Shown piece by piece: positions 1,694-27,981 of a DNA stretch of 34,174 nt. Each line of letters starts with the position of its first letter. Positions within the stretch are counted from its first letter, which is position 1. The stretch comes from an uncultured bacterium (GTDB lineage Bacteria; Eisenbacteria; RBG-16-71-46). The position numbers and the translations under genes were made by a program. Below the pieces are notes generated by a model. It was not told the DNA's origin, made no database searches, and saw nothing but the letters and a program-made list of their open reading frames with translations. The stretch is taken from assembly GCA_964554725.1 (NCBI GenBank), contig CAZKQE010000002.1:1-34174 (forward strand). The letters are read 5' to 3'.

Positions 1694-1711
1694 TCAAGAC
1701 GGGGTCAAGAT
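1694..1711 (+). promoter_or_regulatory. Tandem heptads TCAAGAC-GGGG-TCAAGAT (11-bp period), SARP-box-like
   Basis: Read directly: cggTCAAGACggggTCAAGATtcc. It lies in the divergent region between the metallopeptidase and yceI-like genes. No -10-like hexamer sits 8 nt downstream, unlike the other copies. Confidence 0.35.
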
Positions 1712-2572: not shown

Positions 2573-2609
2573 CGCGACGGCCCCCGGTCGAGGACCGGGG
2601 GCCGTCGCG
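2573..2609. terminator. Bidirectional GC-rich hairpin between convergent genes
   Basis: GCGACGGCCCCCGGTC (2574-2589), loop GAG, GACCGGGGGCCGTCGC (2593-2608). This is a perfect 16-bp stem, 17 bp with C2573:G2609. There is no T-tract. Confidence 0.6.
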
Positions 2610-3254: not shown

Positions 3255-3472
3255 GATGGTCCCCCGGATGGCGGGTCGGGTGAAGGGAGGCCCCCATTCT
3301 CGCGCAGGAGCGCGGCGGACGGCCACCTCGTTCGATGCCGCGTCCGGGCCGCCGGGTCCGCACCTCACCCGCGACGCGGCCGGCAGCTTCCACCGCGCGG
3401 ACTGCAATCGCCTGTCTCCCTTGTGGTTATGACCGGGCCGATGCGACCCCGCGGCCCCCGGCGGGCGTCCAC

Positions 3473-3504
3473 TCAAGCGGCGGTCAAGGCGGCTGCGGGA
3501 GGAT
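3473..3504 (+). promoter_or_regulatory. SARP-type promoter architecture: TCAAGCG-GCGG-TCAAGGC, 8 nt, GAGGAT
   Basis: Heptads at 3473-3479 and 3484-3490 (11-bp period). GGCTGCGG is at 3491-3498 and the -10-like GAGGAT at 3499-3504. It matches the copy upstream of the 1602-aa protease (27754-27723, minus) at 26 of 32 positions. It points rightward into non-coding DNA and then antisense to the 886-aa protease. Confidence 0.45.
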
Positions 3505-3717
3505 GGCCGCGCGGGAAGGGGCTTCGCCTCTCGGGGGGCGTCGCACCAACCGTCCGGTACGCGGACCGTTCGGCGGGGGCGCGTCGCGGGAGAGCCCGGT
3601 TTCTGGTGCGGCCCCAGGTCCGGAGCTTCGCTCGCGGTCGTGTCCCCCGTCGAGCGCCGTGCCAGGCGGGAGCCGCGGGGCCGGAAGGGGGCGACCGGGG
3701 CGTGGACCCCGGGGGGA

Positions 3718-6378
3718 TCAGCGGCCGACGACGACCAGCCGGGCCACCCCGGCGGCGCCGGCGCGGGCGAAGTAGAGCCCGGCCGCGAGCGGACGCCCGG
3801 CGGCGTCGAGCGCCTCCCAGCGGGCGCGCCACGTGCCCCGGTCCTCCGCGAAGGGAGCACGGCCCACTTCGCGGCCGGCGAGGTCGAAGACGCGCAGCTC
3901 GGCGCCCGGAGCGGACGGGAGCGCGAAGGTCACCGCGGCGCCGCCCGCGACCGGATTGGGACCGGCGAGCATGCGCCCCGTCGGGGTCGGCGCCTCGACC
4001 CCCACCACCGCCGCGGGGGCCGAGGCGTGGACCGTCAGGCCCTCGAACGTCTGGAGCGGCGTGGGTCCGCCCGGGACGCTCTGGTCGCCGCCCGGCTGGT
4101 GCGCGATGACGCGGTAGGCCGCCACGCGTCCGTTGCGGTTGAGGTACCCGCCCTCGGTGACCCGCAGCCACCACACGTTCGCCGGCCCGGGCGGCAGGTA
4201 GGCGGACGCCGCCCCCTGGGGGATGGGGATGGCGAAGGTCCAGGCGATGTTCCCGGCCGAGCTGGCGCCGGTCACCCAGTCGCTCGCGACCGCCGCGGCG
4301 CTCGAGGGCAGCGGGAAGGAGAGCGCCGGCGGCGCGCCGCCCGACCCCGCGACCGACCCGCTCCCGCCGCCCAGCTCGATCGCGGCGTCCACGTCGCTGT
4401 CGTAGGCGTTGTGGACGATCGTCACTTCCACGGTGGCGATCGGCGCGCCGACCGGGCTCACGAACCGACGTGCGGGGCCCGCGTGGCGGACGCCGCCCTC
4501 CGTGTAGGCGACCCGGTACCAGAAGGGGACGCCGCGCTCACCGCCGGGGACGCCCCACGCGCGCGGGTAGCTCTGGAGATTCGTGCCGTCGGCCAGCGAC
4601 GGGTCGCCGGCGGACGCGACCGAGTCGTAGGGCGCGAACATGCCCGGCGCCCCGCCGACGTCCGGCGCGCGCTCGACCACGAAGTGGCCGGCGCCCATCT
4701 CGCGCATCGTGCGCAGCGTGGCGGTGATCTGATCGGTCCCCGCCCGCAGCTCGAGCCGCCGGACCTGCGAGCGCCCGGGCTGGTCGACCTCGAGGAAGGC
4801 CGCGTGCAGGTCCAACGCGCCGAAGCCGATCGGCGAGTACCAGCCGGGGTCGGCGCCACCGACCCCGGCCGGGACGTCGAGCAGCGTGCGGCGCCCGGTG
4901 GCGCGCAGCACCGAGGCGATCGCGGCGGGCGTCAGCGACGGATAGGCCGAGCGCAGGGCCGCGGCCGCGCCGCTCACGAACGCCGCCGCCATGCTGGTGC
5001 CGCTCCGCCGCCGGTACTGGGCGCCGTCGGTGGTCAGGTCGCCGTCGGCCGAGAGCACCGCCACGCCGGGCGCCAGCAGGTCCGGCTTGGCCTCGTCGGC
5101 CGCGTCGCCATCGCCGTCGGTCGCGCGCGGGCCGTAGGCGCTGAACGGCGCGAAGCGGTCATCGTCGTCGAGCGGCGTACGGCGGCCGTCGAGCGCCCCC
5201 ACCGCCAGCACGCGGTCCCCGCCCGCCGGCGAGGGCACGTAGTGGTCGCGACCCTCGTTGCCGGAGGAGGCCACGACCACGATCCCCAGCTCCGCCGCGC
5301 GGTCGGCGAGCCGCGAGGCCAGGTCGCGCCCGTCGGTCTCGTCCACGCTCGAGAGGGACAGGTTGATGACGTCGATCCCGGTGTGGAACGGGTCGCCCCA
5401 GTCCCGCGCGCGGTTGTGGATGCACCAGTCGAGCGCCTCGGCGAGGCCGGTCCCGACGCCGACGTCGTTCAGCACCTTGACGTCCACGAACCGCGCCTCG
5501 GGCGCCACCCCGCGCGCGTAGCCGGTGGAACCGCCGCTGCCGACCACGATCCCCGCGACGTGGGTGCCGTGGGACTGGGTGGCGGTGCCGCCGTGGTCGG
5601 ACGGGTTCACGCTGCCGTCGCGCGGCGTGTCGAGCGTGGAGTCGCCGGAGGTGAACACGGCGCCGCCGAGGCAGCGGCCCAGCAGCGACTCGTGCCCGGG
5701 ATAGTTCCCCTCCGCCGCGTCGTTCACCCCGGTGTCGAGGATCGCCACCACCACGCCGTGGCCCGCCGGCATCCCCATGCCCGACCAGGTCGGGAACACC
5801 TGCTCCTGCGGGTCGCGCACCCCGATCCCGGCGGCCGCCTCGTGCAGGACCGGGTAGAGGATGGGGATGGCCTCGACGCGTTCGACGCCCGGCAGCGCCG
5901 CGGCCGCCTCGGCCTGGGCGAAGGTGGCGACGCTGCGGAGCGCCGGGAGCGCCGTGTAGCGGTGGAGCACCGGCATGCCGAGCGCGGTGAGCGCGAGGAG
6001 GTCCGCGTCGGCGGGCGGCTGCAGGTAGTGGACGTAGACGCCGTAGAGCAGCGAACCCGGGATGCGGGTCACGTCGATGCGCCGGCGCTGCAGGCTGTCC
6101 GCCTGCTCGAAGGCGAACGTGTAGCCCAGCACGTGGACGGTCTCGATGCGGTCGTCGATCCGGTCCTCGTCCTGGTCCCAGATGAAGGGCGCGCCGGCCG
6201 CCGGTCCCGGGACCAGCAGCGTGACGGCCGCCAGCAGCCACGCCGGCCACGCCGCGGCGCCCGCGTGCCGCCGCGCGGCGCGGGCGGACACGACGACACC
6301 TCTCCGGGCGGGCCCCAGGGCGTTCATCGCCGGGAAGTGGACCGCGGAGGGGTTGCCTGGGACTTGACCGAATGCCAT
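3718..6378 (-). CDS. Secreted subtilisin-like serine protease (peptidase S8) with P-domain-like region and FlgD-Ig/T9SS-type C-terminal domain
   Basis: Catalytic triad motifs VVVAILDTGVND (Asp), SHGTHVAGIVVG (His) and SGTSMAAAFVSGAAAAL (Ser). The C-terminus is NPVAGGAAVTFALP...LRVFDLAGREV...GLYFARAGAAGVARLVVVGR. The start is uncertain: ATG 6378, ATG 6327 or GTG 6291 (GGAGAGG SD). A hydrophobic signal segment, AWPAWLLAAVTLLVPGPAAGA, follows all three. Confidence 0.9.
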   Translation of the reverse strand: MAFGQVPGNPSAVHFPAMNALGPARRGVVVSARAARRHAGAAAWPAWLLAAVTLLVPGPAAGAPFIWDQDEDRIDDRIETVHVLGYTFAFEQADSLQRRRIDVTRIPGSLLYGVYVHYLQPPADADLLALTALGMPVLHRYTALPALRSVATFAQAEAAAALPGVERVEAIPILYPVLHEAAAGIGVRDPQEQVFPTWSGMGMPAGHGVVVAILDTGVNDAAEGNYPGHESLLGRCLGGAVFTSGDSTLDTPRDGSVNPSDHGGTATQSHGTHVAGIVVGSGGSTGYARGVAPEARFVDVKVLNDVGVGTGLAEALDWCIHNRARDWGDPFHTGIDVINLSLSSVDETDGRDLASRLADRAAELGIVVVASSGNEGRDHYVPSPAGGDRVLAVGALDGRRTPLDDDDRFAPFSAYGPRATDGDGDAADEAKPDLLAPGVAVLSADGDLTTDGAQYRRRSGTSMAAAFVSGAAAALRSAYPSLTPAAIASVLRATGRRTLLDVPAGVGGADPGWYSPIGFGALDLHAAFLEVDQPGRSQVRRLELRAGTDQITATLRTMREMGAGHFVVERAPDVGGAPGMFAPYDSVASAGDPSLADGTNLQSYPRAWGVPGGERGVPFWYRVAYTEGGVRHAGPARRFVSPVGAPIATVEVTIVHNAYDSDVDAAIELGGGSGSVAGSGGAPPALSFPLPSSAAAVASDWVTGASSAGNIAWTFAIPIPQGAASAYLPPGPANVWWLRVTEGGYLNRNGRVAAYRVIAHQPGGDQSVPGGPTPLQTFEGLTVHASAPAAVVGVEAPTPTGRMLAGPNPVAGGAAVTFALPSAPGAELRVFDLAGREVGRAPFAEDRGTWRARWEALDAAGRPLAAGLYFARAGAAGVARLVVVGR
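6336..6367 (-). promoter_or_regulatory. Degenerate SARP-box-like copy: TCAAGTC-CCAG-GCAACCC, 8 nt, TCCACT, then 8 nt to the ATG at 6327
   Basis: Minus strand reads cggTCAAGTCccagGCAACCCctccgcggTCCACTtcccggcgATG. It lies inside the first 17 codons of the longest ORF call for the 886-aa protease. Confidence 0.25.
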
Positions 6379-6399: not shown

Positions 6400-9300
6400 T
6401 TACACCGATGTTGCCAGGCGCTCGGGCTGCCGGGCCGGGACCGCGAGCAGCCGCTGCACGGCGCGCGCCGTCTCGGGGAGCGGCTCCACCCCCAGCTCGG
6501 CCCGCAGCAGGCCCTTCAGCTTGTCGTACTCGGCGATCGCGGCGCGCCGCTGGCCGAGCGCGACCATCGCCTCCATCATCGCCAGCCTCGTCGCCTCGCG
6601 GAACTCGTCCAGCTCGGCCGCGCGCCGGAACGCCGCCAGCGCCGCCTCGTGGTCGCCGGCCCCGGCGCAGGCGGCCCCCAGGTCGAGGTGCAGCTTCTCC
6701 ATCCGGTCGCGCGCGCGCGCCTGGAGGTCCTCCGCCCACGGGCCGTAGATCCCCTCGAGGAACGGCGCCGACGCGAGCGCCGAGGCCCGCTCGAGGGCGT
6801 GCCGTCGGGCGTCCGGGTCGCGGGCCGAACGCGCCTCCTCGATCGCGCGGTCCACCTCCCAGGCGTCGCACGCCATCGGGAAGGCGGGGTTCAGGCGATA
6901 GAACTCGCCCTCGCGCAGGATCGCCGGCTCCTTCGCACGCCCGAGCACGCCCCGGACGTAGGACAGCGTCGGGTGGAAGTTGCGCCGGCCCGCCGCCAGC
7001 TGGCGACCCGGCCAGAAGTGCTCGAGCAGCGCGTCCTTGGCGGCCCCGCGCGGATGGAGGGCGAGGAAGACCAGCAGGTGGAACGCGCGCTGGGCCCGCC
7101 ACGCCGAGGCCGGGACCGGCCGGCCCTCGACCTGCAGGTGCGGCGGTCCGTGCAGGACCAGACGCGGCACCCGCGCCTCGACCTGCTCGTCGGCGGCCGC
7201 CCCGCGGGCCAGACGCTCGGCGATGTGGCGCCGGGCGGTGCGCAGCGCCGGCCGCAGCGACCGCCGCGTCGCGCCCAGCCGCTCGAAGGCCTCGTGTGCC
7301 GCCCGGCCGCCCACCTCGCCGAGCAGCGCCACCACCGCCTCGGCCGCCGACGGCGGCGCCTCGGCGAGCGTCTGCAGCAGGGCGTCCTCGATCGCCACCC
7401 CCGCCTCGACCAGCGCCGCCGAGGCGACCTCGGTCTCGATGCCGCGGGCGAGCGCGTAGAGCAGGGGCGCGGGCTCCTCCCGCGCCTGCACGCGCAGGAA
7501 GTAGAGGTAGCCGCGCTCGCGCACCAGCCGCAGCGCCTGCGCGAGATGGGCGTCCACGCTGCGGCGGTCCCCCATCGCGTGGCGGGACTCCCCCAGCCAG
7601 TAGTGGACGCGCATGCGCTGGAAGTCGTTCTCGCCCGCGTCGGCGCGCGCCACCAGCGACTGGAGCAGGTCGCGCGCGACCCGCACGCGGCCGGCCCGCA
7701 GCTCGCACCAGGCGAGGGTCGCGCGGTACTCCGTGAGCTGCGGCGCGTCGGGACGCCCGGTGAGGCGCTCGATCGCCTGGCTCAGGAACTCGACCGCGCG
7801 ACGGTACTGGCCGCGGGCGCAGAAGATGCGGCCGCGCAGCACCAGCAGGTCGAGGGCGATCACCTCCATGCGCAGCTCGGCGTTCAGCTCCTCCGCCCGC
7901 TTCAGCGCGGCGAGCGCCCCGTCGAGGTCGCCGCCCTGGGCGAGGATCTGCGCCAGCGCCTCGTGGCAGCTGGTCTCGAGCGCCCGGTTCGAGAAGCGCT
8001 GCGCCGCCAGCAACCCCTCCTCGGCCGCCCGCCGCGCCTCGGCGAGCTCGCCCAGCTCGGCGAGATGGAACGCCAGGTTCGAGAGGTAGAGCGGTGCGCG
8101 CGGCGAGGCGGTCCCCCGCACCTGCGAGAGCGCCGCCCGGAACTCGCGCGAGGCCTCGTGGAAGCGCCCCTGCGCCGCGTAGGCGCCGGCGAGGTTGTGC
8201 AGGATCGGCAGCAGGAGCTCGGGCTCGGCGGCGGCCGGGAGCATCGCCCGCACCTCGTCGAGCACGCGCACGGCCGCCCGGTACTGTCCGAGGTAGAAGT
8301 GCGCGCCCGCCTTCATCTGCATCAGGCGCGCGCGCACGTCGAGCCCCAGGTCCTGCGCCAGGGCGAGGCCGCGCTCGGCCATCCCGAGCACCTGCTCGTA
8401 GCGGCCGCGCAGGTTGAAGACCTTGCCGAGCCCGATCAGCGCCAGGCACTCGTGCGCGCGGTCGGCGCTCTCGCGGCAGCGCCCGAGCACCTCCTGATAG
8501 AGCCCTTCCGCCTCGTCCCAGCGGCCCAGCGCCTGCCGGGCGTCCGCCAGCGCCACCGCCAGCGCGGCGTCGGAGCGGACCGCCTCGCCCGGAAGGTCGT
8601 CGAGGTACTGCAGGAGCGCCGCGGCGCGGCCCTGCGCGAGCAGGCGCGGGGCCAGGTCGCGCAGCAGTCCGACCGCGTCGGTCCCACGCCCGGCGGCGAG
8701 GAAGTGGCGGAGCGCGCGCTCGGGCTCCCCGCGCGCGGCCAGCGCGGCCGCCGAGTCCGCCTCGAGGTCGCGCCAGGCCCCGGGTCCGCCCGCCCCTTCG
8801 ATCTCCTGCCGGATGAAGCGCCGCACCAGGTCATGGCACTCGTACGAGGCCTGCGTCCCGGTGCCGAAGGTGCGGAGCAGTCCGCGGCGCGCCAGCGACT
8901 CCAGCAGACCGCGCGCGTCGCGGTCGCGCCCGGCGAGCGTCGAGGCCAGGTCGGCGTCGAAGCGCGTGAGCGCGGCGGTGCGCTCGAGCATGCGCCGGGC
9001 GCCCGGGTCGAGCCGCGCGTAGACCTCGGAGGACAGGTAGTCGTGGAGCTCGAGGTTCGAGGCGTGGAAGTCGGCCAGCACCTCCTCGAGCGTCGCCCGG
9101 TCCGAGCGCCGGAGGGATTCGAAGACGAGGTGGACGGCGGTCGGCCAGCCGAGCGTCGTGCGATCGAGGGCGTCGAGCGCCTCGTCGACCAGCGGGCGGC
9201 GGTAGACCTCGGCGAACAGCCGCGCCAGCTCCTCGCGCCCGAGCCGCAGGTGGCTCGAATCGAGCTCGAACACGTCGCCGCGGGCGCGCATCCGCTCGAG

Positions 9301-9858
9301 CCCGAGCGGCGGCACCGCGCGGGTGGCGATCACCACCCGCACGCGGGGCGGCAGGTGGCGCAGCAGCGTGTCCATGAACGCGACCACCTGGGGATTGCCG
9401 GCCACCTCCTGGAAATCGTCGAGGACCAGCAGGTGGGGCGGGCCCTTGAGCGCGGCCAGCTCGTTGGCGAGCGTGCCGGCCAGCATCTCGGCCGAGTGCA
9501 GCCCCGGGCGGGCCTCCTCGAGCGCGACGTGGAAGTCCCGCCCGAAGCGCGGGTGCTCGCGCCGGAACCCCTCGAGCAGGTAGCGGCCGAACACGACCGG
9601 GTCGGCGTCGGAGCCCATCAGGGAGTACCACACGACCGGTCGCGCCACCGCCCGGGCGTAGCCGGCGAGCAGCGTGGTCTTGCCGTAGCCGGCATCGGCG
9701 ACCACCAGCGTCAGCGGGCGGTCGCCGTGGTCGATCAGGGCCCGGATGAGATGCGGCCGATCGAGGACGTGGGCGCCGGGGTTCGGCCGGCTCAGCTTGG
9801 CCCGCAGCAGCGGGTGCTCCCCGGCCGGCCGGCGCAGGACGTGACGTTTCAAGGGCAC
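6400..9858 (-). CDS. STAND-class transcriptional regulator: MalT-like P-loop NTPase + TPR array + C-terminal SARP module (OmpR-type winged helix + BTAD)
   Basis: The N-terminus resembles MalT: KLSRPNPGAHVLDRPHLIRAL...LTLVVADAGYGKTTLLAGYA (Walker A) and HLLVLDDFQ (Walker B). The middle has TPR-like repeats. The C-terminus is LVLHGPPHLQVEGRPVP...QRAFHLLVFLALHP...ALLEHFWPG...FYRL followed by BTAD-like FLEGIYGPWAEDLQARARD...AIAEYDKLKGLLRAELGVEPLPET. GTG start at 9858, TAA stop at 6400. Confidence 0.85.
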   Translation of the reverse strand: MPLKRHVLRRPAGEHPLLRAKLSRPNPGAHVLDRPHLIRALIDHGDRPLTLVVADAGYGKTTLLAGYARAVARPVVWYSLMGSDADPVVFGRYLLEGFRREHPRFGRDFHVALEEARPGLHSAEMLAGTLANELAALKGPPHLLVLDDFQEVAGNPQVVAFMDTLLRHLPPRVRVVIATRAVPPLGLERMRARGDVFELDSSHLRLGREELARLFAEVYRRPLVDEALDALDRTTLGWPTAVHLVFESLRRSDRATLEEVLADFHASNLELHDYLSSEVYARLDPGARRMLERTAALTRFDADLASTLAGRDRDARGLLESLARRGLLRTFGTGTQASYECHDLVRRFIRQEIEGAGGPGAWRDLEADSAAALAARGEPERALRHFLAAGRGTDAVGLLRDLAPRLLAQGRAAALLQYLDDLPGEAVRSDAALAVALADARQALGRWDEAEGLYQEVLGRCRESADRAHECLALIGLGKVFNLRGRYEQVLGMAERGLALAQDLGLDVRARLMQMKAGAHFYLGQYRAAVRVLDEVRAMLPAAAEPELLLPILHNLAGAYAAQGRFHEASREFRAALSQVRGTASPRAPLYLSNLAFHLAELGELAEARRAAEEGLLAAQRFSNRALETSCHEALAQILAQGGDLDGALAALKRAEELNAELRMEVIALDLLVLRGRIFCARGQYRRAVEFLSQAIERLTGRPDAPQLTEYRATLAWCELRAGRVRVARDLLQSLVARADAGENDFQRMRVHYWLGESRHAMGDRRSVDAHLAQALRLVRERGYLYFLRVQAREEPAPLLYALARGIETEVASAALVEAGVAIEDALLQTLAEAPPSAAEAVVALLGEVGGRAAHEAFERLGATRRSLRPALRTARRHIAERLARGAAADEQVEARVPRLVLHGPPHLQVEGRPVPASAWRAQRAFHLLVFLALHPRGAAKDALLEHFWPGRQLAAGRRNFHPTLSYVRGVLGRAKEPAILREGEFYRLNPAFPMACDAWEVDRAIEEARSARDPDARRHALERASALASAPFLEGIYGPWAEDLQARARDRMEKLHLDLGAACAGAGDHEAALAAFRRAAELDEFREATRLAMMEAMVALGQRRAAIAEYDKLKGLLRAELGVEPLPETARAVQRLLAVPARQPERLATSV

Positions 9859-10018
9859 GAGGGTTCCCGGTCGCGCGGCGTCCCCTGCGCCGGGTCCGGG
9901 GGGAGGCCCGCCCGACCCGCCCGGCGGCCGGCGCGACGGCGGCCGCGGGACTCAAGCCTAACAGACCCGAAGTCCCCCCCGACACGATTTCCCAACGGAG
10001 CCTTGGACATCGGCTTGC

Positions 10019-10048
10019 GCGGGCCCCCACCGGGCGTGGGGGGCCCGC
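10019..10048. other. GC-rich hairpin in the divergent control region
   Basis: GCGGGCCCCCAC (10019-10030), loop CGGGC, GTGGGGGGCCCGC (10036-10048). A 12-bp stem with one bulged G. Confidence 0.4.
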
Positions 10049-10060
10049 GACGGGACCCAG

Positions 10061-10092
10061 TCAAGCCCCGGTCAAGCGGCTGAGGTCAGGGT
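10061..10092 (+). promoter_or_regulatory. SARP-type promoter architecture: TCAAGCC-CCGG-TCAAGCG, 8 nt, CAGGGT, upstream of the 999-aa S8 protease and divergent from the regulator
   Basis: Heptads at 10061-10067 and 10072-10078 (11-bp period). GCTGAGGT is at 10079-10086 and CAGGGT at 10087-10092. The 15-mer TCAAGCCCCGGTCAA is identical to 27754-27740 on the minus strand. Confidence 0.55.
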
Positions 10093-10164
10093 CGTGCGCG
10101 TCCCCGCGGGGCGAGCCTACGGCGTCCCGCCCTGTCCCCTGGCATTCGAAAGGAGCCGACGACC

Positions 10165-13164
10165 ATGTCCCAGACCCTCCGGCGTTCCCTCCTCAGGACC
10201 GCGGGTCTCGTCGCGGTCCTGTGCCTGCCGGCGCCCCGCGGCGCCGCGGCGTACGTGGATCAGAACCTCAACCGCATCGACGACCGGATCGAGCAGGTGA
10301 ACCTGAACGGCTGGAACGCCGCCTTCGTGGGCGGCGACCCGGGCGGTCGCATGGCGATCGGCGTCTCGAATCCCGGCGCGATCGTCTACGCGGTCTACGT
10401 CGGCTACGACCACAAGCCGACCGCGCTCGACGAGCTGGCGCTGGCCGGCACCGGGGTCGCGATGGTGTGGCCGTTCCAGAACATCGACTACATCGAGTCC
10501 CGCGCCACCTGGGCCCAGATCCAGCTGATCGCCGCCCTGCCGGGCGTGGCGCGGATCGAGGCGATCCCGGTCGAGTACGCCCTCAACCACTACGGCTCCC
10601 GGGTGGTCCGGGCCCGCGACTCGCGCGGCCTCACGGCGGCCGACAACTACGCCCTGTTCCCGAGCGCCCGGCAGGAGCTGGGCCTCGACGGCACCGGGAT
10701 CGTCATCGCGATCCTCGACACCGGGGTCAACGACGATCTCGACCAGGTGAACCCGGGGTACCCGGGACACGAGGGGCTGCAGGGCAAGTTCCTCGGCGGC
10801 GGCGAGTTCTGGTGCGGCCAGCCCGAGTGCTCGACCCCGGCGGGCGGCAGCTCGAACCCGCAGGACCATGGCGGCGAGGCCTCCAGCTACCACGCCACCC
10901 ACGTGGCCGGCACCGCGATGGGGACCGGCGGCCCGGGCGGCTACTTCTCGGGCGTCGCCCCGGGGGCGCGCCTGGTGGACTGCAAGGTCCTCTCGGACGC
11001 CGGCGCGAGCGTCGGCGGCAGCACGCGCGGGCTCGACTGGTGCATCTCGAACCGCAACCGGCTGTGGCCCGGCCTGCTGCCGGGGAGCATCTGGCAGGGG
11101 ATCGACGTGGTCAACATGTCGCTCGGCTCGACCGAGTGCGCGACCGGCGAGGGCACCAGCACCGGGTCGGGCGCCTCGAGCGCGGCCGTCAACGCCGCCG
11201 TGGATGTCGGGATCGTGGTGGTCATCGCCACCGGCAACGACGACGCGATCGACTGCATCTCCTCGCCGGCGGCGGCCGACAAGTCCATCGCGGTCGGCGC
11301 CTCGAGCCACGCCCGCACGCTGAAGCGGAACGACGATCAGGTCACCACCTTCTCGAACGAGGGCCGGCGCGACGACGACGGCGACGCCGACCACACGGAC
11401 GAGATGAAGCCCAGCGTGGTGGCCCCCGGGGCCGGGATCATCTCGGCGAGCGGCGACGTCACCACCGACGGCAGCGCCTACTCGCAGCTCTCCGGCACCA
11501 GCATGGCCTCCCCGCACATCGCCGGCTGCGTCGCGCTGCTCCTGCAGGCGAATCCCGCGCTCGCGCCGCTCCAGGTGCGGTCGATCCTGCAGAACACCGC
11601 GGAGCACGACATCCCGACCGCGAAGGCCAGCGGCGACCGCGGCCAGAACCACTTCGGCATCGACATCAACTACGACCCGAGCTGCGGCTGGGGCCTGGCC
11701 GACGTCTACGCCGCCGCCAAGGAGGCGCTCGACAGCGCCTCCGGCGTCCAGGTCGTGCAGATCGGCGCCACCGCGCTGCCCGCGCAGGGCCGTATCGACT
11801 TCCGCTGGGTGACGCAGCGCGAGTACCCGTTCCTGGGCTTCCACGTCCATCGGGCCCCCGACGTGAACGGGGTCCCCGGCGCGTTCACGCGACTCACCAC
11901 GCTCCCCATCACGCCCACCGGGGACCCGGTCATCGAGAACGACGACAACCGGACGCCCTACGTCTATCCCGACAGCGACCCGTCGCTGGTGCTCGGCCAG
12001 CGCTACTGGTACCAGGTCGAGTGGGTGGACCTGCTGGCGACCGGGCACCTCGAGCCGCCGGTGCCGGTCGAGTTCGGCACGCTCGCCCGCGTCGCGACCG
12101 CCTTCTACTCGATCGCCCACAACGCGGTGGACAACGACCTGCTGGTGCGGCTCGGCAGCGACCTCAACTACGCCCCGGGCTCGCTGGGACAGAGCGACTA
12201 CGAGGTCCTCGGCCCCGGCGAGACCCAGCAGGACAGCGCGCGGGTGGTGCTGGACCCGGCGGTGCCGCCCAACACCGGCACCTCGACGTTCGGCACGATC
12301 GACCACTTCTGGTCGGTCGGCTTCAACCAGGGCGACGGCGCCGAGGCCTACCTGCCGCCCTCGCCGGCGACCCCGTGGTTCCTGCACGTCACCGACGCCG
12401 GGTTCGTGAACCGCACCGGGCGCGTCACCTCGTTCTCGCTGTTCGTGAACGACTTCCCCGGCAGCCCCGGCGGCAGCACCTACGTCACCGACCACCTGCC
12501 GATGCCCCAGCCCACCGGGGAGTTCGGCCTGACACCGGCGATCCTGTGGATCCCCGAGGCGCAGCCGACGGCTTCGGTGGTCGCCACGTTCCGCGCGTCG
12601 GGGGAGGATGGGGCCATCCGCATCCAGCTCGACCTCGCCCACGAGTCGCCCGGCGCGCGGGCCAGCGTGTTCCGCTCGCGCTCGATCGAGTTCGCGACCC
12701 GGGAGGCCCTCACCGCCGAGCCGCTGCCGTTCGAGCGCACGGCGTTCGTCTACCACGACGACGCGGTCGAGCCGGGGACGACCTATCACTACTGGGTGCA
12801 GGTCCACGACCCGGACGGCACCTCGTTCATGAACGGTCCGGTTAGCGCGACCGCCGGCACCGGCTCGCGGGTGACGTTCGCGGCCCCGCCGCGGCCCAAT
12901 CCCGCCTCGCACGGCGCGTCGTTCGCCTACCGGATCGGCACCGACGTGGCGGCCGGCGGACCGGTCGCGGTCTCGCTGCGGCTCTACGACCTGCAGGGGC
13001 GCGAGGTGAGCGTGCTGCGCGACGGGACCGAGCGCGCCGGCGAGCACCGCGTCGACTGGGACGGCACCGACCGGTACGGACGCCGGCTCGCCGCCGGCGT
13101 GTACCTGGTGCGCTTCCGCGCCGGCAGCGTGGCCCGCACCCACTCGCTGGTGGTCGTCGACTGA
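10165..13164 (+). CDS. Secreted subtilisin-like serine protease (peptidase S8) with P-domain-like region and FlgD-Ig/T9SS-type C-terminal domain; paralog of the 886-aa protease
   Basis: AAGGAG SD before the ATG at 10165. Signal peptide MSQTLRRSLLRTAGLVAVLCLPAPRGAAA. Triad motifs IVIAILDTGVNDD, YHATHVAGTAMG and SGTSMASPHIAGCVALLL. The N-terminus YVDQNLNRIDDRIEQVNLNGW parallels FIWDQDEDRIDDRIETVHVLGY of the 886-aa protease. C-terminus PNPASHGASFAY...LRLYDLQGREV...GVYLVRFRAGSVARTHSLVVVD. Confidence 0.92.
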   Translation: MSQTLRRSLLRTAGLVAVLCLPAPRGAAAYVDQNLNRIDDRIEQVNLNGWNAAFVGGDPGGRMAIGVSNPGAIVYAVYVGYDHKPTALDELALAGTGVAMVWPFQNIDYIESRATWAQIQLIAALPGVARIEAIPVEYALNHYGSRVVRARDSRGLTAADNYALFPSARQELGLDGTGIVIAILDTGVNDDLDQVNPGYPGHEGLQGKFLGGGEFWCGQPECSTPAGGSSNPQDHGGEASSYHATHVAGTAMGTGGPGGYFSGVAPGARLVDCKVLSDAGASVGGSTRGLDWCISNRNRLWPGLLPGSIWQGIDVVNMSLGSTECATGEGTSTGSGASSAAVNAAVDVGIVVVIATGNDDAIDCISSPAAADKSIAVGASSHARTLKRNDDQVTTFSNEGRRDDDGDADHTDEMKPSVVAPGAGIISASGDVTTDGSAYSQLSGTSMASPHIAGCVALLLQANPALAPLQVRSILQNTAEHDIPTAKASGDRGQNHFGIDINYDPSCGWGLADVYAAAKEALDSASGVQVVQIGATALPAQGRIDFRWVTQREYPFLGFHVHRAPDVNGVPGAFTRLTTLPITPTGDPVIENDDNRTPYVYPDSDPSLVLGQRYWYQVEWVDLLATGHLEPPVPVEFGTLARVATAFYSIAHNAVDNDLLVRLGSDLNYAPGSLGQSDYEVLGPGETQQDSARVVLDPAVPPNTGTSTFGTIDHFWSVGFNQGDGAEAYLPPSPATPWFLHVTDAGFVNRTGRVTSFSLFVNDFPGSPGGSTYVTDHLPMPQPTGEFGLTPAILWIPEAQPTASVVATFRASGEDGAIRIQLDLAHESPGARASVFRSRSIEFATREALTAEPLPFERTAFVYHDDAVEPGTTYHYWVQVHDPDGTSFMNGPVSATAGTGSRVTFAAPPRPNPASHGASFAYRIGTDVAAGGPVAVSLRLYDLQGREVSVLRDGTERAGEHRVDWDGTDRYGRRLAAGVYLVRFRAGSVARTHSLVVVD

Positions 13165-13302: not shown

Positions 13303-13851
13303 ATGTCACGTGACCGAGGTAGGATGGAACGGCCCGGGACGCCCCCGGCCGTGGTGATGGCCGCGCTGCTGCTGTGCGCGGGCGCCGGCGTCGTGGGGGC
13401 CGCGGGCCCCGGTGTGACGACGGGCGCGGGCGCCCGCTGCGAGGCCGCCGTCCGGCACCCGATCGAGGTGCGCGTGCGCCCGCTCGACCCGGTGCGCCGC
13501 GGGGCGACCGTGCGGCTCGAGGTGCGCGCGTCCGCGCGGGTGCCGCTCACCGGCGCCGAGATCCGGCTGGCGTCGTCGGGAGGCGCGGTCCTCGCGAGCG
13601 CCCCGCGGCTGGCGCTCGGCCGGATGGCTCCCGAACGCGAGGCCGCCGGCACCTTCGCGGTCGCCGTGCCGCCGCAGGGCCACCGCTTCCTGGTCCAGTT
13701 CCTCGTCACCGGCGAGGGCCCGCGCGGCGTCCTGACGCGGGGCGCCGTCTACAACCTGCTGCCGGACGGACCGCAGGACGCCGGCCGCGAGGTGACCACG
13801 TCCGGCGGCGAGCGGGTGATCGAGTTCGCCGCCATGCGGAGCGGGCGATGA
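13303..13851 (+). CDS. Small secreted protein of unknown function, translationally coupled to the downstream metalloprotease
   Basis: GAGGAGG (13290-13296) lies 6 nt before the ATG at 13303. Hydrophobic signal segment AVVMAALLLCAGAGVVGAAG. The beta-rich body has high GC3. Its TGA (13849-13851) overlaps the ATG (13848-13850) of the next gene as ATGA. Confidence 0.65.
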   Translation: MSRDRGRMERPGTPPAVVMAALLLCAGAGVVGAAGPGVTTGAGARCEAAVRHPIEVRVRPLDPVRRGATVRLEVRASARVPLTGAEIRLASSGGAVLASAPRLALGRMAPEREAAGTFAVAVPPQGHRFLVQFLVTGEGPRGVLTRGAVYNLLPDGPQDAGREVTTSGGERVIEFAAMRSGR

Positions 13852-17179: not shown

Positions 17180-17210
17180 ACGGGGCGCCGGCGCACGGCC
17201 GGCGCCCCGT
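17180..17210. terminator. GC-rich hairpin directly after the metalloprotease stop, between convergent genes
   Basis: ACGGGGCGCCGGC (17180-17192), loop GCACG, GCCGGCGCCCCGT (17198-17210). Perfect 13-bp stem. Confidence 0.6.
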
Positions 17211-18048: not shown

Positions 18049-18528
18049 CTACGGTCCGCAACTCCGGATGCGGTCCAGGATGCGGATGAGCGCCGAGAGC
18101 TCGTCGCCCCCGAGCCCCGCGAGCACCTCCTGCTCGGCCCGCTCGACCTGGGGATCGAGACGGTCGAGCAGCGCGACCCCGGCGGGCGTGATCCCGCACA
18201 GCACCTGACGTCGGTCGCTCGCGCACCGCTCGCGCCGCACGAGGCCCTTGCGCTCGAGCCGGTCGAGGAGCCGGGTGATCCCCGGCGTCCGCTCGATCAT
18301 GCGCGCCGCGATCGCCAGCGTCGGCATCGCCTGCGGTGCGGAGCCGCGCAGGATGTGGAGCACGTTGTACTGCTGCCCCGAGATCCCCGCCGGCTCGATC
18401 GCCCGGAGCAGCCGGCGGCGCAGGTGGTCGGCGGTGTGGAGGATGCCGATCACCGCTTCCTGCTGCGGGGTGCGGAACGGCCGGGTCTGCTGGAGCTCGG
18501 CCTGGAGCCGACCGGAGGGGCGCGTCAT
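18049..18528 (-). CDS. MarR family transcriptional regulator
   Basis: Winged-helix MarR pattern: ISGQQYNVLHILRGSAPQAMPTLAIAARMIERTPGITRLLDRLERKGLVRRERCASDRRQVLCGITPAGVALL. I use the ATG at 18528 (MTRPSGRLQAELQQ). The track start at 18564 is a TTG that coincides with the -35 box. Confidence 0.85.
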   Translation of the reverse strand: MTRPSGRLQAELQQTRPFRTPQQEAVIGILHTADHLRRRLLRAIEPAGISGQQYNVLHILRGSAPQAMPTLAIAARMIERTPGITRLLDRLERKGLVRRERCASDRRQVLCGITPAGVALLDRLDPQVERAEQEVLAGLGGDELSALIRILDRIRSCGP

Positions 18529-18535
18529 GGGAGTT

Positions 18536-18568
18536 AGCATACACATCAATAGATGACGCGTCAATCAA
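18536..18568 (-). promoter_or_regulatory. marR promoter TTGACG-17 nt-TATGCT, with palindromic operator TGACGCGTCA overlapping the -35; ATG 7 nt after the -10 (leaderless-type)
   Basis: Minus strand: TTGACG (18564-18559), 17-nt spacer, TATGCT (18541-18536), AACTCCC, ATG (18528). The perfect 10-bp palindrome TGACGCGTCA is at 18563-18554. Confidence 0.6.
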
Positions 18569-22690: not shown

Positions 22691-22725
22691 GCGCGCCGGA
22701 CGGTCCCCGTCGGGCGAGCACGGGC

Positions 22726-22749
22726 GCGGCCACCCCGAGGGGTGGCCGC
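22726..22749. terminator. GC-rich hairpin between convergent genes
   Basis: GCGGCCACCCC-GA-GGGGTGGCCGC. Effectively a 10-bp stem with a CGAG loop. Confidence 0.5.
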
Positions 22750-22786
22750 GGTGCCCGCGACCGGGCCCGGGCGGGGCCCGCGTCGC

Positions 22787-25700
22787 TCAGCGGAGCAGGG
22801 CGAGGCGCCGCTCGAAGCGGCCCTCGGGGGTGACGAGGCGATAGAAGTAGAGCCCCGAGCGCGCCCGCATCCCGCTCTCGTCCCGCCCGTCCCAGGTCGC
22901 GCGGTGGATGCCGGCGTCGTGCATGCCGCCCGCGATCCGCCGCACCTGCCGCCCCTGCGCGTCGTAGATGTCGAGCGTGACCTCGCCCGGCCGCGGAAGG
23001 CCGAAGGAGATCGAGGTCGGTCCGGCGGCCGGGTTGGGGGCGTTCTGGGCCAGGAACGCGACCGGCGGCGCCCCGCCCTCGACGGCCACCACCGGCGGCC
23101 CGTTCACCTGCACCTCGCGCGAGGAGGCCGGCCCCCAGTTGCCCTGGGTGTCGCGCCCGCGCACCCACAGACGGCGCACGCCGGGCGAGAACGGCGTCGT
23201 GTCGAGACCGATCGAGACGTCCACGGTCTGGGCGCCGAACGCGCCCGACATCGGCGTCCCGCTCCCGGCCGGGGCCGGCGAGTCGCCGATCGACCACTCG
23301 GCCGCGGCGACGGTGCCGGACCCGGTGTTCTGGTCGCTGATCCGCGCCACCAGCGTGGCGGGGTCGGGCCGCACGATCGGGTTGGGACTGGCGGCGATCG
23401 AGCCGGCGACGACGATCGGACCCTGCAGGTCCCCGCCCGCGCGCTGGAGCGCGAAGTCCGCGTTCGACGCGTCGCCGGCCGAGAGCGCCGGCGTCCCGTC
23501 GTCCGTCACCCGGATGCGCACCCGGGCGCCGACCGTGTTGGGGACCGCGGAGAGGTCCCAGCTGTACGGGCCGGGACCCACCCCGGTCGCCAGCGGCTGC
23601 CAGGAGGATCCGCCGTCCAGCGACATCTCGAGCGTGCGCGAGACGATCGCGCGCCCCGGTCCGGCGGTCTCGTTCCAGGTGATGTCCACCGCGCCCGCGG
23701 TCACCACCTCGCCGCCGTTGGGCGCGGTGATCTCGACCGTCGGCCGCGGCCGGCCCAGCAGCCACAGCACGGTCTTGCCGAGCAGGTCGTTGCGGGTGGC
23801 GCTCGCGGCGTTGAACGGCGGCGCCAGCGCCGTGAACTCGAGGAAGAAGTTCGCCAGCCGCGACGGCAGCCCGCCCCAGAAGGCGGTGCCGGCGCTGCCG
23901 TTCGGCGTCGCGCTCTCCCAGCGGAACGCGACGTGGTCGGGCGTGGCGTCGCCGCCCGCGTTCAGCAGCGTGTAGCTGCCGATGCCGCCGGCGAGCGGAT
24001 GGATGTCCACCTCGTCGCCGGCCCCGCCGCTGCGGACCGGCGTGTAGGGGATCCCAGTCGTGTAGCCCCCGGTGATCGGGTCGCCGGCAATGCCGATCGC
24101 CTGCGACCAGGTGGCGGGGTCCGCCTGGTACTGCGCCCGCAGCGTGGTCTCGACCCACAGCCGGCGGTCGGGAGTGAAGGCGGGCGAGGTCGGGTCCGAG
24201 AGCCCCCAGGCGATGTCGTGGCCGTTCACCATCAGCCGGCCGCCGCCGTCGAGGTAGTCGGTGATGCGCGTGCGCGCGGCGTCGCTGAAGGCGGGATAGG
24301 CCTCGAGGCCGGGCTGCCACAGCACCGCCTGGTAGGCGCGCAGGCCCGAGGCGAGGTTCCCGAGCGGCGGGTCGTTCGCCAGCGCCTCGCCCCACAGGTC
24401 GTAGTCGATGCCGTTCGCCTGCAGCGCGCTCTCCCACGTGACCGTGCGCTCGAAGCCGTCCGCCCCCAGCACCAGGAGCACGTCGCCGCGCGCCTTGGCC
24501 GTGAACCGGTAGTGCTGGCCGCCGAGGTCGTCGCGCACCAGGTTCCCGCTCAGCGACACCGACTCGACGTCGTAGTAGTAGGTGGCGCCCAGCGTGAGAC
24601 CGGTCAGGTCCACGGTGTGGGCGAGCGGGTGACCCGGGCCGTCGACCGCGCCCAGCTCGAGCGCCGGCGTCAGGCCGTAGTAGACCCGCGAGGAGGCGTT
24701 GAGGTGGGTATCCCAGGCGATCTGCACGCGGCCGCTGCCCTGCGGCAGCGCCCGCACGTTCGTGATGATCGGCGTCGCCAGGCTCACCTGCGCCCCCGCC
24801 TGGAGGGTGGCCGCCGGCGACGCGTCCACGTAGGTGGCGGTGATCTGGTCGCCGTGGGCGACCGACAGCAGGCCGTCCACGGTCGAGACGTCCGCCGGGG
24901 TGAGGGTGACGGCGCCGGAGTAGAGCCCGTTCGCGCCGGACAGGGTGACGACCAGCGGCGTGGTCTCGGTGTCCGAGACCAGGCTGACGTTCACGCTGGG
25001 GCCGGCGTTCGTGTCGGTGACGCGGAGCTCCACGGTCCCGGTCGAGCCGTACTCGGCGCGGTCCAGCGCCAGCGTCCCGGCGTCGGTGCCGACGCCGCCG
25101 GTGACGCACAGACCGAACGGCTGCGGCCCCATCGGCACCGCCGCCGCGTCGATGCGGATGGTCCAGATCCCGGTCGCCGGGGCCCCCACCAGCACCGCCT
25201 CCTCGACGTTGCGGTTGTCATGGCTGCCGCCGGTCACCGAGAGACCCGCCGCGTACACGTTGCCCTTGTAGCTGGTCGCGCCACGGCTCACCGTCAGGTT
25301 CAGGTTGTTGACCAGCTGCACGGCCGCCGCCGGGTTGCCCGGGAAGTCGGTCCAGCACAGCGAGACCTCGAGCGGCACCCCGCCGTCGACCACGTTGACC
25401 TGGTACTCGACGAACTGCCCCGCGCCCAGGCCCTCCGTGTGGTCCACCAGCAGCAGCTTGCGCGCGTCCCCGGCGAAGTAGAGCACCTCGTCGGCGACGA
25501 TCTTGCCGTAGCCGACGTTGTGGTCGGGGGCGGTGAAGCCGGTGACGACGTTCGCCGCCGCGTTGATGCCCATCGCCTTGAGCAGGGCGGCCGAGGGCGT
25601 GAACCCGTTCGCCGGCACCTTGGTGCCGGTCGGGTACCAGCCCTCGGTGCAGTACTGGCGGATGAGCGTGATCGCCCCGGTCCCCGACGGACACGCCATC

Positions 25701-27722: not shown

Positions 27723-27754
27723 AGCCTCCCGCCGCCGGGTTGACCGGGGCTTGA
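27723..27754 (-). promoter_or_regulatory. SARP-type promoter architecture: TCAAGCC-CCGG-TCAACCC, 8 nt, GAGGCT, upstream of the 1602-aa protease
   Basis: Minus strand: TCAAGCC (27754-27748), CCGG, TCAACCC (27743-27737), GGCGGCGG (27736-27729), GAGGCT (27728-27723). An additional single TCAAGCC sits on the plus strand at 27818-27824, facing the cytochrome gene. Confidence 0.55.
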
Positions 27755-27981
27755 GCCGGCGCCCGGGCGGGTCCGCTGGAGACAGGCAACCGATTGCGCA
27801 CCATGGCGTTAGGAAAATCAAGCCGGGCCGGTTCGGAGTGGGTCTCGGAGCGCTCTGCCGGCCCCGTCCCGCCGCCCGCACCCGGCGGCCGGCCCGCGCG
27901 CGCGGGCGGCGGTCGCCGGCCGGGGCCTGCTACGCTGCGCCCGCCCCCGCCTCCCGCCGGCCCCGGAGACCCCGACGATCC

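Follow-up and report, generated by a model that had tools for sequence, protein, structure and literature searches.

In the 34,174-nt stretch of DNA analyzed here (contig CAZKQE010000002.1, positions 1 to 34,174; referred to as the window), an intergenic region at positions 9859 to 10164 parts two divergent genes. The gene on the minus strand (6400 to 9858, GTG start) encodes a regulator of 1,152 amino acids (aa) that we call REG. The gene on the plus strand (10165 to 13164) encodes a secreted S8 (subtilase) protease of 999 aa (Pfam Peptidase_S8, E = 3e-45, with FlgD_ig); we refer to this gene as S8_999 and to the S8 gene 3′ of REG as S8_886. An earlier note on this DNA had described the two flanking genes and four elements between them, and all of these are present where it had placed them: an isolated heptad, TCAAGCC, at 9952 to 9958; an inverted near-copy, GGCTTGC, at 10012 to 10018; a GC-rich hairpin at 10019 to 10048; and a pair of direct repeats followed by the hexamer CAGGGT at 10061 to 10092. 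Only the last of these, the box pair, is clearly beyond chance. Judged from the sequence comparisons described below, the box pair and its hexamer are a promoter element conserved across the phylum Eisenbacteria. They probably form an activator-dependent promoter without a −35 element, through which REG drives S8_999.

Box pair and hexamer upstream of the 999-aa protease gene

The box pair (site A) consists of TCAAGCC at 10061 to 10067 (plus strand) and TCAAGCG at 10072 to 10078 (plus strand). The second heptad begins 11 nt after the first, leaving a 4-nt spacer, and the −10-like hexamer CAGGGT (10087 to 10092, plus strand) lies 8 nt past it. Transcription would start near 10099, which places the heptads at about −38 to −21 and gives S8_999 a leader of ~66 nt carrying the Shine-Dalgarno sequence AAGGAG (10150 to 10155, plus strand). 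Promoters activated by proteins of the SARP (Streptomyces antibiotic regulatory protein) family have direct repeats with a spacing of 11 or 22 bp, the 3′ repeat being separated from the −10 by 8 bp (PMC10936776), and the sites have been described as heptameric direct repeats with 4-nt spacers over the −35 of their targets (PMC10972967). In the AfsR complex, two adjacent SARP protomers cover the −35 and touch sigma region 4 (PMC10936776). Site A shows the same arrangement, with two heptameric repeats 11 bp apart at 10061 and 10072 and 8 nt between 10078 and 10087. The repeats also take the place of a −35, since a scan of 9800 to 10220 for sigma-70 −35/−10 consensus sequences found no such pair. 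The designation of these repeats as SARP boxes in the earlier note is supported by an exact match to the published geometry (11-bp period, 8 bp to the −10; PMC10936776).

The exact 18-mer pattern of the box pair occurs once in the window, together with two single-mismatch copies of the same layout at 3473 to 3490 and 27737 to 27754. REG homologs come from metagenome-assembled genomes (MAGs) of Candidatus Eisenbacteria (Eiseniibacteriota) from soil and groundwater, fall into more than 100 clusters, and are 54 to 86% identical to REG over their full length. We compared the window with 62 loci from relatives, of which GTDB species genomes supplied 37 and JGI metagenomes 25. A regular expression for two TCAA[GC] heptads with an 11-nt period, 8 nt, and NANNNT had 48 matches in 557 kb versus 0 in five Markov-1 simulations. 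A 36-nt position weight matrix (PWM), trained solely on sites of other genomes and then run over the window, scored site A at 32.9 bits versus a maximum of 6.9 bits in ten random windows. The layout of two TCAAG heptads with an 11-nt period, 8 nt, and nAnnnT was found at 80 unique sites in the 62 loci and the window. Only the two heptads were required for membership in this set, so the TCAAG core is a product of the search pattern by construction, while the hexamer and the flanks, which were inspected afterwards, are free of that requirement. At the hexamer, position 2 is A in 65 of the 80 sites and position 6 is T in 72, against a background of ~13% per base. Both heptads of site A have flanks like those of the 80-site profile. 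When the window was aligned with two relatives that share the divergent gene arrangement (L002 and L016), the sequence CCAGTCAAGC.C.G.TCAAGCG stood out as an island of identity amid diverged sequence, and the Shine-Dalgarno region was also kept in both.

Nearly all of the 80 sites lie upstream of secreted S8 protease genes that adjoin the regulator. In all 47 loci with enough sequence, REG is followed on the same strand by an ortholog of S8_886, and in most lineages the box pair is found between the two genes. At ~45 of these S8_886 ortholog sites, the start codon is only 6 to 8 nt past the hexamer. This distance implies leaderless mRNAs and, as separate evidence, identifies the hexamer as a true −10. 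S8_999-like genes are present in 12 loci, and every one is preceded by a box pair, with leaders of 16 to 110 nt. Because REG adjoins box-driven S8 genes in the 47 loci, we infer that REG is the protein that binds the boxes; at site A, the box pair is probably bound by the neighboring REG through its SARP module.

The repeats could also be viewed as an upstream element of an alternative sigma factor or as a −35-like TTGAC on the opposite strand serving divergent transcription. The reverse complement of the heptad does hold CTTGAC, which resembles TTGACA, and one box site of the window without a hexamer at +8 (site E, described below) is located just upstream of a minus-strand gene. However, paired heptads at one helical turn, with a fixed 8 nt to nAnnnT on the same strand, are unlike a single −35. 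In addition, most of the sites have no divergent gene, the boxes being situated between co-oriented REG and S8 genes, and on the opposite strand at site A there is no −10 at 16 to 18 nt. We regard this view as very improbable.

Domain order of the regulator and its C-terminal module

Pfam assigns to REG an N-terminal AAA/STAND ATPase (AAA_22/AAA_16), a TPR_MalT region, and a BTAD domain at residues 997 to 1138 (E = 9e-14). The NCBIfam MalT profile matches residues 17 to 784 (E = 3e-71), at 240 bits versus an equivalog cutoff of 537, and the NCBIfam AfsR profile matches residues 882 to 1139. No LuxR/GerE helix-turn-helix (HTH) was matched by Pfam in REG; the C terminus instead comprises an OmpR-type winged helix directly followed by the BTAD domain, the composition of a SARP module (residues ~882 to 1139, encoded at 6442 to 7215 on the minus strand). 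A phmmer search with the last 286 residues gave a single alignment to the AfsR SARP domain (8hvr_I, residues 31 to 284; E = 1e-6) that included the winged helix, and a single alignment to EmbR (2fez; E = 4e-6) that likewise spanned winged helix and BTAD. With a profile of 13 sequences, the AfsR and EmbR matches sharpened to 7.7e-10 and 1.8e-9, respectively. The C-terminal 273 residues were modeled with AlphaFold2 (pLDDT, 87.6; pTM, 0.83), and the model was compared with known structures by the use of Foldseek. The top six PDB matches were all AfsR or EmbR (TM scores of 0.72 to 0.79 over ~255 columns, with 26% identity to AfsR), and the matches that followed were generic TPR proteins with E values above 1e-3. 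Within the module, the stretch A76-R90 (AAGRRNFHPTLSY.R) is nearly all invariant in the 13 sequences, which are 51 to 75% identical. In the model it sits within a long helix (72 to 93) that is N-terminal to the beta-hairpin wing, and we take this helix to be the putative recognition helix, the invariance of which parallels the common TCAAG core of the boxes.

REG therefore has the domain order of MalT (ATPase, arm, sensor, output), with a SARP module in place of the LuxR-type output, and is not a canonical SARP, having a MalT-like ATPase and sensor and carrying its SARP module at the C terminus. A close counterpart is AfsR of Streptomyces coelicolor at the afs box of the afsS promoter (PDB 8hvr, 8k60, and 8jke). 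Both proteins join a STAND ATPase, a TPR sensor, and a SARP module in one polypeptide, and at both promoters two direct repeats with an 11-bp period cover the −35 and 8 bp separate the second of them from a weak −10. In AfsR, however, the SARP module comes first, whereas in REG it comes last (~882 to 1139 of 1,152 residues); the repeat here is TCAAGYC; the hosts are Actinomycetota and Eisenbacteria, respectively; and AfsR targets a regulator of secondary metabolism, whereas the targets here are secreted proteases. MalT of Escherichia coli and the LAL regulators share with REG an ATPase, an arm, a TPR-like sensor, and a C-terminal DNA-binding output, and the N-terminal 780 residues of REG match the MalT profile, albeit below the equivalog cutoff. 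MalT and the LAL regulators differ in that their output is a LuxR-type HTH rather than a winged helix plus BTAD, and the sites found here are SARP-like rather than MalT boxes. Small SARPs (ActII-ORF4, DnrI, and RedD) are ~300-aa proteins of actinomycete antibiotic clusters without the sensor domains of REG. The heptad core of their sites is of the TCGAG type, from which the TCAAG heptad differs by one base. As at site A, these heptameric direct repeats have 4-nt spacers and lie over the −35 (PMC10972967). The SARP-LAL hybrids PimR, SanG, and FilR resemble REG in fusing a SARP module to a LAL/MalT-type ATPase and in using heptameric repeats with 4-nt spacers (PMC10972967), but their SARP module is N-terminal and they belong to polyene or nucleoside antibiotic clusters of Streptomyces.

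Reviews describe SARPs as essentially actinomycete activators of antibiotic clusters, with the module only at the N terminus (PMC10936776, PMC10972967). A search of the literature collection used here found nothing on Eisenbacteria regulators or C-terminal SARP modules and no characterized protein with a C-terminal SARP module. Such modules are nonetheless common in metagenomic proteins. When the profile of the REG C terminus was run against 1.8 billion representative proteins, many proteins of 500 to 1,370 aa with C-terminal SARP modules were among the best 150 matches, which were inspected. The N-terminal parts of these proteins include MalT-like ATPase/TPR regions, and several have no Pfam domain besides BTAD. 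One such protein, labeled Candidatus Eremiobacterota, combines an HD domain with TPRs. The sources of these proteins (P0128 to P0269) often name them MalT/LuxR or "TPR protein," and many REG homologs carry the JGI name "LuxR family maltose regulon positive regulatory protein." What is familiar from SARPs is the geometry of the sites and the fold of the module that binds DNA; what departs from them is the host phylum, the order of the domains, a sensor half like that of MalT, the genes targeted, and the frequency of leaderless mRNAs.

The boxes might be genuine promoter elements and yet be read by another protein that binds repeats with an 11-bp period, such as an OmpR/PhoB-type response regulator, with REG merely lying beside its own targets. 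At pho-box promoters, two 7 + 4-bp direct repeats replace the −35, and tandem winged-helix domains of PhoB contact sigma region 4. Site A likewise has paired 7 + 4-bp repeats in place of a −35, and OmpR/PhoB winged-helix proteins in general share this direct-repeat geometry; moreover, the binding of REG is a prediction, and the Pfam Trans_reg_C model does not match REG. PhoB, however, is a two-component response regulator without a BTAD domain, and no response regulator gene is present among the annotated genes of the window. REG is also the sole DNA-binding protein that consistently adjoins the sites in the 47 loci, the 8 bp to the −10 are the rule for SARPs, and the REG C terminus models as AfsR/EmbR. 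We thus consider it unlikely that a different binder reads these boxes.

The putative REG promoter, the inverted near-copy, and the hairpin

REG appears to be transcribed from a promoter of its own. An extended −10 on the minus strand (TGTTAGGCT, 9955 to 9963) would place the start near 9948, with a ~90-nt leader. Alignment of REG upstream regions revealed a conserved TCTGnTAnnnT block, and 40 of 48 loci have TGnTAnnnT among the 260 nt that precede REG, between −54 and −140, whereas ~0.02 occurrences per region would be expected by chance (an estimate from base composition). The isolated heptad TCAAGCC (9952 to 9958, plus strand) overlaps the last four bases of this −10 and the next three, being the reverse complement of GGCT plus TGA. 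The earlier note had raised possible autoregulation of REG, and the isolated heptad is the candidate half-site for it. An isolated exact heptad carries little weight alone, as 10 TCAAGCS heptads were observed in the window versus 5.1 expected. Among 36 unique REG promoters, however, 12 carry the pentamer TCAAG/CTTGA across the 3′ border of the −10, 9 of them in the same register as in the window, where ~1 would be expected from its rate elsewhere in the same upstream regions; these occurrences represent ~3 to 4 clades, a small effective sample.

The simplest reading is that the isolated heptad is promoter sequence, i.e., only part of the REG promoter (−10 TAGGCT plus TGA), not bound by REG and not a means of autoregulation, and we hold this to be slightly favored. 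The heptad overlaps the conserved TGnTAnnnT, the pentamer is absent from this position in 24 of the 36 unique promoters, and SARP sites normally need at least two repeats (PMC10972967). The distance to the box pair also varies (a 97-nt spacer in the window versus 125 nt in L002). On the other side, the excess of the pentamer at the −10 edge extends over at least 3 to 4 clades, and a full sense-oriented box with hexamer is located upstream of REG in three other loci (L010, 9548 to 9579; L046, 2785 to 2816; L050, 4685 to 4716). These boxes suggest positive autoregulation in those lineages, and they make control of REG by its own product plausible in the family. What stands is that a heptad lies on the REG −10, with pentamers there in a third of relatives; a regulatory meaning is possible, and the same observations are equally compatible with mere promoter sequence. 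Autoregulation, if it operates in the window, would most likely act by covering the −10 and so repressing REG. The isolated heptad is 109 nt from the box pair in the window, but a fixed phase was rejected, because the corresponding spacer in L002 is different by 28 nt. A 9-bp hairpin at ~9922 to 9948 (minus strand), near the 5′ end of the putative REG leader, is found in six close relatives with few compensatory changes, too weak a signal for a structure to be claimed.

The earlier note had treated the inverted near-copy GGCTTGC (10012 to 10018, plus strand) as an extra half-site. It matches the heptad at 6 of 7 positions, the exception being the T of the TCAA core. The window contains 84 heptads with one mismatch versus 68 expected, so that one is met roughly every 400 bp when both strands are counted, and the corresponding positions read GAACGCC in L002 and GAAGACC in L038. 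With a density expected by chance and no conservation in these two relatives, a role for this element is unsupported, and we judge it to be incidental.

The hairpin (10019 to 10048) is a GC-rich inverted repeat with a 10-bp perfect stem (10019 to 10028 with 10039 to 10048) and a 10-nt loop; it reads as 12 bp when one bulged G is allowed. The earlier note had mentioned possible insulation of the REG promoter, and a terminator or insulator is one functional role that could be assigned to the hairpin, a palindromic operator for a dimer such as the MarR protein encoded at 18049 to 18564 being another. The GC stem is strong (−35.8 kcal/mol for the 58-nt segment at 10005 to 10062) and resembles the perfect GC hairpins of 11 to 17 bp that are located where convergent or terminal genes end in the window (2573 to 2609, 17180 to 17210, and 22725 to 22750) and are likely the terminators of this organism. 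However, the minimum-free-energy z score is only −2.0, with 10 of 200 shuffled sequences folding equally well, and GC hairpins are common in the window, with the best at gene 3′ ends (the count of perfect stems passes over the 10-nt-loop hairpin). There is no T-run or terminator-like site in 9800 to 10220, such that the hairpin does not qualify as an intrinsic terminator. Alignment and folding showed that L002 and L038 hold different, weaker GC-rich sequence and that L016 holds nothing corresponding, so that neither sequence nor stem is kept in these relatives. The hairpin is at about −51 to −80 of the putative protease promoter and −71 to −100 of the putative REG promoter. Being upstream of both starts, it would be crossed by neither transcript, leaving nothing for an insulating terminator to terminate. 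The suggestion of insulation therefore fails on position, on the missing T-run, and on conservation, and any present function of the hairpin, as terminator, insulator, or operator, is unlikely. In L001 and L040, a GC-rich stretch follows the stop codon of an upstream aconitase gene, at the equivalent place upstream of REG, and the hairpin may have been left over from an aconitase-side terminator of this kind; otherwise we judge it to be incidental.

Other box sites, the proposed regulon, and neighboring genes

Four further sites were recognized in the window; all five are intergenic and near secreted-peptidase genes, with sites A, B, and D before S8 genes, site C an orphan, and site E between genes for a Peptidase_Mx-like and a YceI protein. 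Site B (27723 to 27754, minus strand; PWM score, 30.7) reads TCAAGCC-ccgg-TCAACCC, 8 nt, GAGGCT and is upstream of the gene for a 1,602-aa S8 protein (22787 to 27595). Site D (6336 to 6367, minus strand; PWM score, 16.1) has a degenerate box, TCAAGTC-ccag-GCAACCC, followed by 8 nt, TCCACT, 8 nt, and the ATG at 6327; this layout recurs in L001, L002, L033, L039, and L057, the degeneracy being a trait of the clade to which the window belongs. Because of the box and −10 layout of site D and the starts of the orthologs, the true start of S8_886 is probably the ATG at 6327, giving a leaderless gene for an 869-aa product (3718 to 6327, minus strand), rather than the ATG at 6378 of the longest open reading frame (ORF; 886 aa). 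It is this S8 protease that is the universally conserved downstream partner of REG. Upstream of site B, 64 nt away on the opposite strand and directly after TTAGGAAAA, there is an exact isolated TCAAGCC (27818 to 27824, plus strand) that resembles the heptad at the −10 of REG. Sites B and C also share an upstream sequence, GCAATCG(N0-4)CCTGTCTCC, at 27770 to 27796 (minus strand) and 3404 to 3425 (plus strand), at differing distances from the boxes.

Site C (3473 to 3504, plus strand) reads TCAAGCG-gcgg-TCAAGGC, 8 nt, GAGGAT and has the highest PWM score in the window (33.1) but no ORF downstream. It has homologs in L001 (10955 to 10972), L033 (3614 to 3631), and L039 (7848 to 7865), all on the minus strand. 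The site and its homologs are always divergent from the gene of a secreted TPR protein and aimed at the 3′ end of a convergent gene, of which the window has only a remnant (~3600 to 3650). No small ORF is shared downstream of the site in the homologous loci; the conserved stretch is the remnant of the 3′ end of the convergent gene. Transcription from site C would reach the end of the S8 gene in antisense orientation, and the site could be a promoter for a noncoding or antisense RNA, or a relic. Site E (1694 to 1711, plus strand; PWM score, 9.4) is TCAAGAC-gggg-TCAAGAT, with the 11-nt period and without a −10-like hexamer at +8. It is conserved in the Peptidase_Mx-like/YceI interval of five loci, i.e., the window, L001 (12728 to 12745), L003 (17776 to 17793), L033 (5385 to 5402), and L059 (13386 to 13403), and may be a binding site that serves some other, perhaps repressive, function.

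The genes on the S8_999 side of REG vary. The closest relative, L038, whose REG is 86% identical, has kept the box pair but lost S8_999 and most of the gene for a 1,265-aa protein behind it; the protease pair would thus be a variable cassette beside REG. In that locus (5300 to 6001), the kept divergent box pair is upstream of a 65-aa remnant of the C-terminal domain of the 1,265-aa protein. A box upstream of REG was not found in all relatives; a divergent box occurs there only in the close relatives L002, L038, and L055, because the upstream neighbor of REG varies. No site above the PWM threshold precedes the 1,265-aa gene in the window (at 13374), which is therefore probably cotranscribed with S8_999.

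We propose the following sequence of events. By analogy with MalT and AfsR, REG would be autoinhibited, and engagement of its TPR sensor and ATPase would relieve this state. Once switched on, two SARP modules would occupy the heptads side by side, on the same face of the helix given the 11-bp period, and would substitute for −35 recognition, bringing RNA polymerase to the weak −10. Transcription from ~10099 would then cover S8_999 and probably the 1,265-aa gene, and sites B and D would place the other S8 genes under REG as well. REG itself would be made from its separate extended −10 promoter, where the isolated heptad may allow it to damp its own synthesis; GGCTTGC and the hairpin would have no role. 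Given the nature of the targets, it is an attractive guess that the signal is a product or cue of extracellular proteolysis.

The suggestion in the earlier note that the layout serves activation of the protease gene is favored by the SARP geometry, the upstream position, the SARP module of REG, and the phylum-wide conservation of the element; as to the target, the conserved partner of REG is the S8 gene at 3718 to 6327 rather than S8_999. Several observations weigh against the proposed activation by REG. Besides the window, the divergent REG/S8_999 arrangement is found only in L002 (85% REG identity) and in L016, which has a 2-kb insertion. Site C is a strong site without a downstream gene, so that binding may not always activate a protein-coding gene, and site E and its homologs have no hexamer. 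Pfam Trans_reg_C has no match in REG even at E ≤ 10, and the winged-helix assignment accordingly depends on the AfsR/EmbR alignments and the predicted fold. With its module at the C terminus, REG could differ from AfsR in its reach to RNA polymerase. Finally, the phylum is uncultured, the evidence throughout is comparative sequence analysis of MAGs, and the specificity of the motif for REG loci was measured on ~750 kb around REG genes. Taking both sides together, we still consider activation of S8_999 by REG from site A to be probable.

A broader proposal, to which we lend somewhat less than even confidence, is that of a phylum-wide regulon: a MalT-like sensor ATPase ending in a SARP module would activate secreted proteases, many of them with leaderless mRNAs, along with an orphan box-driven antisense transcript, and would be subject to negative feedback through a single heptad over its own −10. 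Were this regulon real, the sigma adaptation of SARPs would be ancient and portable, untied from actinomycetes, antibiotic clusters, and an N-terminal position of the module. Confirmation of binding would extend the SARP mechanism beyond Actinomycetota and would provide a cis/trans pair (a 22-bp box and a ~270-aa module) that can be tested in vitro without culturing the organism. It would also offer a functional handle on many database proteins with C-terminal SARP modules and may point to how Eisenbacteria control protein degradation in soil.

The window has a G+C content of ~75%. Three large secreted S8 subtilases are encoded (3718 to 6378, minus strand; 10165 to 13164, plus strand; 22787 to 27595, minus strand), and the secreted 1,265-aa protein has LTD, PPC, and InhA-MAM-like domains. 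Several of the large secreted proteins end in an FlgD-Ig/T9SS-sorting-like domain, among them the 999-aa protease, in which Por_Secre_tail falls just below its cutoff. The other genes encode an HtrA-like protease, a Peptidase_Mx-like protein, two YceI proteins, a MarR regulator, aconitase, a multiheme cytochrome, a TerB protein, and an amidase. Domain annotation identified no biosynthetic genes in the window, and a search of the whole window against Rfam gave no family at the gathering score. A reading of the locus as a Streptomyces antibiotic cluster was ruled out, the homologs being from Eisenbacteria and the genes (proteases, YceI, MarR, and aconitase) nonbiosynthetic. Two contigs among the relatives carry other labels, namely, Candidatus Saccharimonadaceae (L011, DATJGS010000010.1) and Candidatus Udaeobacter (L012, DATJEP010000038.1); both have a typical Eisenbacteria REG/S8 locus at 66% identity and are probably misbinned or mislabeled.

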